A DNA stretch of 64,000 bases from Octopus vulgaris. Lineage: Eukaryota. The stretch is from contig OX597817.1 of assembly GCA_951406725.2 (NCBI GenBank), positions 75,330,001 to 75,394,000 of the forward strand, written 5' to 3'. A program made the position numbers and the translations under genes. Below, piece after piece: positions 61,923-63,012 of the stretch; position 1 is the stretch's first letter; every line of letters starts with the position of its first letter. The notes under the pieces were generated by a model, which saw nothing but the letters and a program-made list of their open reading frames with translations, made no database searches and had not been told where the DNA came from.

Positions 61923-63012
61923 AGCAATAATAATTCTCTAAATGAGATATAGACAGTGACTGCTCCATAATATAAGGGATATTAGCCAACTGAATATGGC
62001 TAGGGACAGGGCAGGGTGGTGGGGGTGTCACTGTTGCATTTAGCCCCAGGCGAACATCAACGTCACCAGATAGCCGACGCCATCACGGCGTCCTCTACCT
62101 TGTAAAAGGGAGATCATTCACCAAGAGCGGATACCACACACGGACCTAGGTTTCAAGGTGTATTGCCTATTATCAACGTGTGGTAGGCATCGCTTCTCGA
62201 TGAACGACCAACCGTGCAAGATATCTATAAAGATTTTCAAGTAAATACATTTACTGATTTCGAAAATCTGTTCGACAGCAATAATAATTCTCTAAATGAG
62301 ATATAGACAGTGACTGCTCCATAATATAAGGGATATTAGCCAACTGAATATGGCTAGGGACAGGGCAGGGTGGTGGGGGTGTCACTGTTGCATTTAGCCC
62401 CAGGCGAACATCAACGTCACCAGATAGGCCGACGCCATCACGGCGTCCTCTATCTTGCAAAGGGAGATCGTGGTATCTTGCAAAGGGAGATCGTAGATAT
62501 CTTGCAAAGGGAGATCATTCACCAAGAAGCGGATACCACGATGGCGTCGGCCTATCTGGTGACGTTGATGTTCGCCTGGGGCTAAATGCAACAGTGACAC
62601 CCCCACCACCCTGCCCTGTCCCTAGCCATATTCAGTTGGCTAATATCCCTTATATTATGGAGCAGTCACTGTCTATATCTCATTTAGAGAATTATTATTG
62701 CTGTCGAACAGATTTTCGAAATCAGTAAATGTATTTACTTGAAAATCTTTATAGATATCTTGCACGGTTGGTCGTTCATCGAGAAGCGATGCCTACCACA
62801 CGTTGATAATAGGCAATACACCTTGAAACCTAGGTCCGTGTGTGGTATCCGCTTCTTGGTGAATGATCTCCCTTTGCAAGATAGAGGACGCCGTGATGGC
62901 GTCGGCCTATCTGGTGACGTTGATGTTCGCCTGGGGCTAAATGCAACAGTGACACCCCCACCATCCTGCCCTGTCCCTAGCCATATTCAGTTGGCTAATA
63001 TCCCTTATATTA
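61923..63012. mobile_element. Head-to-head multimers of a ~355-bp non-coding hammerhead-bearing unit in (TA)n (retrozyme-like or non-autonomous PLE)
   Basis: The minus block 61923-62539 has period 354 (agcaataataattctc at 61923 and 62277). The plus block 62540-63012 has period 355 (gatggcgtcgg at 62540 and 62895). Confidence 0.88.
62795..62846 (+). ncRNA. Minimal type I hammerhead ribozyme, U3:A8 variant (second copy at 62133-62184, minus)
   Basis: Stem I CACACG/CGUGUG; core UUGAUAA; stem II (U)AGG-CAAUACA-CCU(U); GAA; palindromic stem III ACCUAGGU; GUC triplet ending at 62836. Confidence 0.75.

Follow-up and report, generated by a model that had tools for sequence, protein, structure and literature searches.

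The locus considered here raises the question of how a short sequence that encodes no protein comes to be inserted as two tandem blocks of opposite orientation. It lies in a 64,000-nt stretch of the Octopus vulgaris genome (hereafter the window) and is built from a non-coding unit of 355 nt, whose phases 1-355 are defined on window positions 62540-62894. The first-pass annotation had described about 1.6 copies of a ~355-nt non-coding unit on the minus strand and about 1.3 on the plus strand, and this is borne out by mapping the phases of both arms (Table 1). The 5'-to-5' joint at 62539/62540 and the (TA)n beyond both 3' ends, also part of that description, are seen in the sequence. The plus arm is 474 nt long, and the minus arm comprises 571 template nucleotides together with 47 nt from a triplication close to the inner joint, which probably arose as a templated insert during end joining. 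Features of other kinds also occur in the window. LINE-like reverse transcriptase (RT) frames, or C-terminal parts of such frames, were recognised by eye at 30665-32770 (-), 28076-28552 (-) and 59174-60085 (+), while GC-richer tandem repeats of 62-138 nt, along with a 104-nt repeat, are found at 4954-5177, 29813-30507, 39364-39519 and 55476-55718 and are unrelated to the unit.

Table 1. Anatomy of the head-to-head insertion, in window coordinates.
Feature	Position	Strand	Remarks
Left (TA)n target tract	61786..61922	.	
T ("tailed") arm	61923..62539	-	phase 303 to 163, 1.6 laps; 3' end is fixed site T
44-nt tail, phase 120-163	61923..61966	-	at the 3' end of the minus arm only
Type I hammerhead	62137..62182	-	predicted cut 62143/62142; pattern scan, covariation
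23-nt triplication near inner junction	62451..62516	-	
Head-to-head (5'-5') junction	62539..62540	.	blunt, free of microhomology; from the sequence
S (untailed) arm	62540..63013	+	phase 1 to 119, 1.3 laps; 3' end is fixed site S
Predicted RNA domain around site S	62591..62672	+	folding prediction
Type I hammerhead, U3-A8 core, palindromic stem III	62797..62842	+	predicted cut 62836/62837
Right (TA)n target tract	63014..63397	.	

A retrozyme family with a predicted hammerhead

The first-pass annotation assigned a hammerhead to each full unit. A type I motif is indeed present once per arm, with the refinement that its core is the U3-A8 variant UUGAUAA. Cleavage is predicted after phase 297 (62836/62837), and the minus arm consequently begins 5 nt downstream of the predicted site, as had been claimed. 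A relaxed scan of the whole window returned four hammerhead matches, of which two lie in the arms (cores at 62803(+) and 62176(-)) and the remaining two in an unrelated Penelope-like element (PLE) discussed below. The Rfam scan of positions 60000-64000 found no hammerhead at E<=5, returning only chance matches to simple repeats.

Within the family, core positions 3 and 8 were tabulated over 235 motif hits, in which overlapping loci are counted more than once; U-A occurs in 131, C-G in 68 and U-G in 36, and C-A is absent. Stem III is a perfect palindrome in 223 of the 235, with three palindromes that differ by subfamily, and further palindromes appear in the genome-wide hammerhead list. Among 16 hand-picked distinct sequences, 95.8% of cells pair and four pairs change on both sides, above slid controls. 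These sequences are related, and the covariation is therefore to be read as support rather than as a probability. The compensatory changes support stems I and III as well as the 3-8 pair. A stem III that is both short and palindromic suggests cleavage as a dimer, as described for amphibian retrozymes (PMC7229834). Folded as a circle, one unit has a predicted energy of -117 kcal/mol, with z -6.0 against 100 shuffles. A smaller domain around site S, predicted to consist of a long-range stem (phase 52-59 with 126-133) and a hairpin (phase 84-103), is recovered in all four subfamily units, with one compensatory change among three sequences. The unit is thus predicted, from its sequence, to carry a self-cutting ribozyme. 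Such activity is not guaranteed, since dimers of Xenopus retrozymes failed to cleave in vitro in eight of nine cases (bioRxiv 10.64898/2026.07.22.740005).

The annotation's view of the unit as a multicopy non-LTR retrozyme is upheld genome-wide. A 26-nt motif common to the subfamilies has 3,693 exact-pattern matches and the hammerhead pattern has 2,733, the reversed controls giving 0 in both cases. With the unit itself as query, 1,477 first-look candidates came up in the 2.8 Gb genome, and 40 of them were scored. Identity to the window unit ranges over 72-87% in four natural reference units of 355-359 nt, and across the family units of 355-360 nt are arranged head-to-tail in tandem. The family is a non-LTR retrozyme with several subfamilies. 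A divergent flank observed in contigs assembled from sequencing reads led to another retrozyme subfamily rather than to a helper element. The sigma-70 promoter scan yielded nothing useful, a bacterial-type model being irrelevant to an animal genome.

Two fixed 3' ends and the pairing of arms

The behaviour of the family was examined in 160 distinct whole insertions, retained from 199 fetched loci once duplicates and insertions cut by locus ends had been dropped. Sampling took the top BLAST hits and the first pattern hits, mostly on contigs C1-C2, and was not random. Arm 3' ends are fixed at two sites 44 nt apart, S (mode 119) and T (mode 163). In the first sample 147 of 164 arm 3' ends continue into TA, and both sites are also used at AT-rich targets other than TA. 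Accordingly, the earlier proposal that 3' ends fall at chance TA microhomologies gives way to two fixed sites, whereas the proposal that priming took place on either side of a break in a (TA)n target is supported. Direct target duplications of ~10-14 bp were identified by eye at the informative sites L186, L194, L251, L055, L238, L182 and L240. Two RT start sites tens of nucleotides apart are also what defines the "tail" of PLEs (PMC11167929).

The two sites are paired almost without exception. The 160 insertions comprise 94 head-to-head and 66 one-armed examples (44 S, 19 T and three other), so that two-ended priming is not always visible. Of the head-to-head insertions, 82 are S/T and one is S/S; there are no T/T cases, and in 11 an end could not be classified. 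S/T therefore accounts for 82 of 83 classifiable cases (binomial P about 1e-23), a count that drops to 81 if a local duplicate in L268 is counted once. A sample of 46 loci, picked by an internal motif and thus blind to ends, gave 28 S/T, two T/other and no like pairs; by script, 28 of 28 classifiable insertions in this blind sample are S/T. The sole S/S insertion, L194, is flanked by a direct duplication and seems to be authentic.

The paired arms also resemble one another more closely than they do other members of the family. The same subfamily reference is best for both arms in 91 of the 94 head-to-head insertions. In 52 of the 56 pairs that could be tested, an arm lies nearer to its partner than to the median arm of the same subfamily, and in 39 the partner is closest or tied; mean divergence is 1.2% to the partner versus 4.0% within the subfamily. 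Four pairs of unlike arms (L033, L018, L045 and L063) were recorded in an earlier table. Gene conversion between inverted arms could also make arms alike. Inner ends lie <=12 nt apart in 15 of 76 pairs, where shuffles give 3.3, and junctions are mostly blunt or overlap by 1-3 nt (47 of 76). The S arm reaches further back in 37 pairs and the T arm in 24; that either arm can be longer argues against fold-back copying. Junction and inner-end data fit two independent cDNAs on one RNA rather than fold-back of a single arm.

Whether the template is a circle or a linear multimer can be approached through arm lengths. Arms of exact whole laps number nine of 224 versus 2.8 expected, in a comparison made after the pattern had been noticed, and suggest an RT halting at its own start, an indirect hint of circular templates. 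Arms of one or two whole laps are found at L025, L036, L044, L057, L016, L074, L268, L270 and L277. If both sites were primed on one circle, stalling of S arms would be expected where the T arm began, but such stalls are not enriched (one arm versus 1.9 expected). Lap distances were also tried as a discriminator and set aside, since lap-to-lap, same-lap and other-lap values are all 1.1-1.2%. Variants recurring every second lap were observed in the long arms L248 1176-3057 and L253 1846-3869, a pattern that a dimeric circular template or a later two-unit duplication would give.

The 5' ends are less orderly. Clustering at the cleavage site, which the reading of the first-pass annotation calls for, did not emerge as a sharp peak in two tests. 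Starts within phase 296-305 number nine among 226 simple arms (5.9 expected; P 0.15), while 151 of the 226 run through the cleavage site one or more times. Phase 298-303 shows a weak excess (9 versus 3.6 expected, in an interval picked post hoc) and phase 306-350 a broad one (55 versus 30.6 expected), which may leave room for some cleaved linear templates. The broad excess overlaps the 3' strand of a stable predicted rod, and could reflect either trimmed 5' ends of cleaved RNA or stalling within the rod.

Penelope-like elements in the same genome

The two further hammerheads of the window, at 36536(-) and 37540(+), belong to a young autonomous PLE inserted in (TA)n and present as a bipolar fragment at 36454-37697. 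This element has at least 150 matches about 99% identical, among the 150 scored of 25,905 first-look candidates, and whole copies have a 717-codon frame within a 2,591-bp unit (L127). It possesses RWK, DKT and CxCX5C motifs and targets (TA)n, features that define the Hydra clade (PMC8557442), and on these sequence features is classed as a member of that clade. Its protein resembles Hydra-1_Obim in a by-eye comparison with the supplement of PMC8557442. A decayed fragment of a Hydra-like PLE endonuclease, 28% identical to the young family, was also observed at window 42660-43020.

The young Hydra-clade element inserts in much the same way as the retrozyme. Its 40 loci hold 41 bipolar insertions, of which 36 are S/T, one is T/T and four are unclassified; for 21 of 24 the distance between the two arms is below the median. 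The flanks of the only T/T insertion (L150 920-3994) are, by eye, mutually reverse complementary, and it is probably a secondary rearrangement or an assembly effect.

Two young Neptune-type families are represented by L307 3627-7897 (-) and L311 1775-5682 (+). In both, an upstream frame accompanies an RT-endonuclease frame of 775 codons, and insertion is into (TA)n with two 3' ends. The second PLE search had 17,060 first-look candidates, of which 150 were scored. Both bipolar copies of Neptune-2 are S/T. Its tail, of about 30-46 nt, compares with 44 nt in the retrozyme and ~73 nt in the Hydra-clade element, and its S site lies ~140 nt past the cleavage site, compared with 177 and 32 nt, respectively. 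The minimal Neptune-2 ribozyme, which is missed by the hammerhead pattern and was identified by eye, shares with that of retrozyme subfamily 2 both C4 and a U-U at the stem II base. Geometry thus weakly favours Neptune-2 as the helper, which is offered as a lead only. Nucleotide similarity to the unit was found in none of the Hydra-clade element, Neptune-1, Neptune-2 and 11 old Hydra-like loci. The genome contains three intact, young candidate helper elements.

A model of integration and its alternatives

The retrozyme is very likely moved by a PLE-type protein, and there is strong reason to think that both ends of an insertion are target-primed, at S and at T. We also consider it quite probable that the arms of an insertion derive from one RNA molecule, while for the template often being circular the case is evenly balanced. 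The unit would be transcribed as a multimer and cut by the hammerhead, probably as a dimer, to monomers that may circularise. A Penelope-like protein, probably dimeric, would then bind the RNA around phase 50-180 and nick both strands of AT-rich DNA ~10-14 bp apart. Of the two DNA 3' ends, one would prime at S and its counterpart at T, which lies 44 nt closer to the RNA 3' end. Both RTs would copy toward the 5' end of the RNA, passing the hammerhead and continuing for several laps. The cDNA ends would finally be fused head-to-head by end joining, with 0-3 nt of microhomology or with a short templated insert. Where one priming failed, or one arm is too short to see, a one-armed copy would result. 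The pairing of S with T arms is likely to arise because a borrowed Penelope-like RT-endonuclease primes both cut ends on one RNA at these two fixed sites. The PLE protein of a lizard behaves compatibly in vitro, where both strands are cut and extended, two start sites are used and a dimer is predicted (PMC11167929), which fits asymmetric twin priming.

The model of two primers on one RNA has to be weighed against others. The arms might instead be copied from two RNAs of one active source locus, with an asymmetric protein dimer enforcing the S and T starts. This would explain the pairing, and the likeness of arms too should one locus dominate expression, and inner ends are independent in 61 of the 76 pairs. 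It does not predict the coincident inner ends (15 versus 3.3), barring shared stall sites, and it sits poorly with four subfamilies that look recently active and yet have their references mixed in only three of 94 insertions; we regard it as unlikely. The inverted arm might also come from self-priming or fold-back, or from a later inversion with gene conversion, rather than from a second target priming. Fold-back on an antisense template has been proposed for Penelope (PMC3846280), three of 76 junctions are near-palindromic (within 2 nt), and the inverted-duplicate flanks of L150 show that secondary rearrangements occur. Against this, junction phases mostly differ widely, either arm may be the longer, the arms end at different fixed sites and the flanks are direct duplications, leaving this origin very unlikely.

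The unit may also be the pseudo-LTR (pLTR) of an autonomous PLE, as the annotation itself allowed, in which case its copies would be truncated insertions of an element as yet unfound. Xenopus retrozymes are related to PLE pLTRs (bioRxiv 10.64898/2026.07.22.740005), and the PLE searches scored 150 candidates from each set. Arms of up to nine nearly identical pure laps (L239, the longest) speak against it, and in the loci examined no coding body is attached: 15 one-armed loci lack a shared upstream body, 19 further hammerhead loci lack an adjoining coding frame (three have PLE fragments nearby that are not contiguous with the unit), and a frame for an RT plus GIY-YIG endonuclease was found neither in nor contiguous with the unit. 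This leaves the pLTR reading highly improbable. Less probable still is a template of self-cleaved linear RNA copied to its cleavage-site 5' end and primed by chance TA microhomology. The start of the window locus 5 nt past the cleavage site and the 5'-end excesses agree with it, but 151 of 226 arms run through that site, the broad excess coincides with the predicted rod strand, and 3' ends are fixed even at non-TA targets. A self-cleaved linear template may nonetheless serve for a minority of arms.

Several known systems resemble this one in part. Non-LTR retrozymes of metazoans and their likely PLE origin have already been published (Cervera and de la Pena 2020, PMC7229834; bioRxiv 10.64898/2026.07.22.740005). 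They are likewise non-coding tandem units, of 170-400 nt, with one type I hammerhead per unit, a strongly self-paired predicted circle, a short palindromic stem III and PLEs in the same genome. Head-to-head insertions, two fixed 3' ends and a tail were not found in the text consulted, and the word "inverted" does not occur in the main text of PMC7229834. The present unit differs further in its atypical core variants (U3-A8, C4 and U10.1-U11.1), and homology to a pLTR was not found. No mollusc appears in the sampling described in the consulted part of the preprint (Li, Clavereau and Pollet 2026; bioRxiv 10.64898/2026.07.22.740005), and a squid genome paper lists 235 hammerhead-1 hits with the elements undescribed (PMC6962438).

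The endonuclease-bearing (EN+) PLEs of the Hydra and Neptune clades share (TA)n targeting, partial tandems and an inverted 5'-truncated copy, as well as a one-ended tail, target duplications near 10 bp and two RT start sites (Craig et al. 2021, PMC8557442; Arkhipova et al. 2013, PMC3846280; Frangieh et al. 2024, PMC11167929). Unlike them, the present unit encodes no protein, and its sequence resembles none of the three active PLE families that were compared. In the same papers the tail is described as "optional" or "often only at one end"; here the counts show near-strict pairing, and both arms seem to derive from a common template. Twin priming of L1 (PMC2837659) resembles the present case in that both nicked strands prime, giving an inverted truncated insertion and a direct target duplication. 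The retrozyme departs from it, its starts being fixed 44 nt apart and both arms copying the same stretch for several laps. In L1 the internal site at which the second primer anneals varies, and the two arms are not known to overlap.

PLEs are thus already known to have inverted copies and tails on one side, while a strict pairing rule was not found in the literature searched. The same literature showed neither this retrozyme family, nor any cephalopod retrozyme, nor the single-template model, and three short unit motifs are absent from the supplement of PMC8557442. The origin of tandem and inverted PLE insertions is stated in that paper to be unresolved. It is an evenly poised proposition that Penelope-type integration is by rule asymmetric twin priming, in which one dimer would use one RNA, here often a circle, to extend both staggered ends from two fixed sites. 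The "optional tail" and the inverted copies of all PLEs would then be its two halves, and the retrozyme would enter the reaction through RNA structure alone, with no homology to its helper.

Earlier grounds for Penelope mobilisation of animal retrozymes were co-occurrence and pLTR homology. The octopus family displays the signature of such mobilisation, namely two 3' ends, an inverted 5'-truncated arm, an AT-rich target and a ~10-bp duplication. Found in full on a 355-nt RNA free of protein-coding capacity, this signature provides direct anatomical evidence for it. The S/T rule, shared with an autonomous Hydra-clade element, leads to a sharp model of one RNA, two primers and two fixed starts, which can be tested in the existing in vitro PLE system and turns a descriptive oddity into a testable mechanism.
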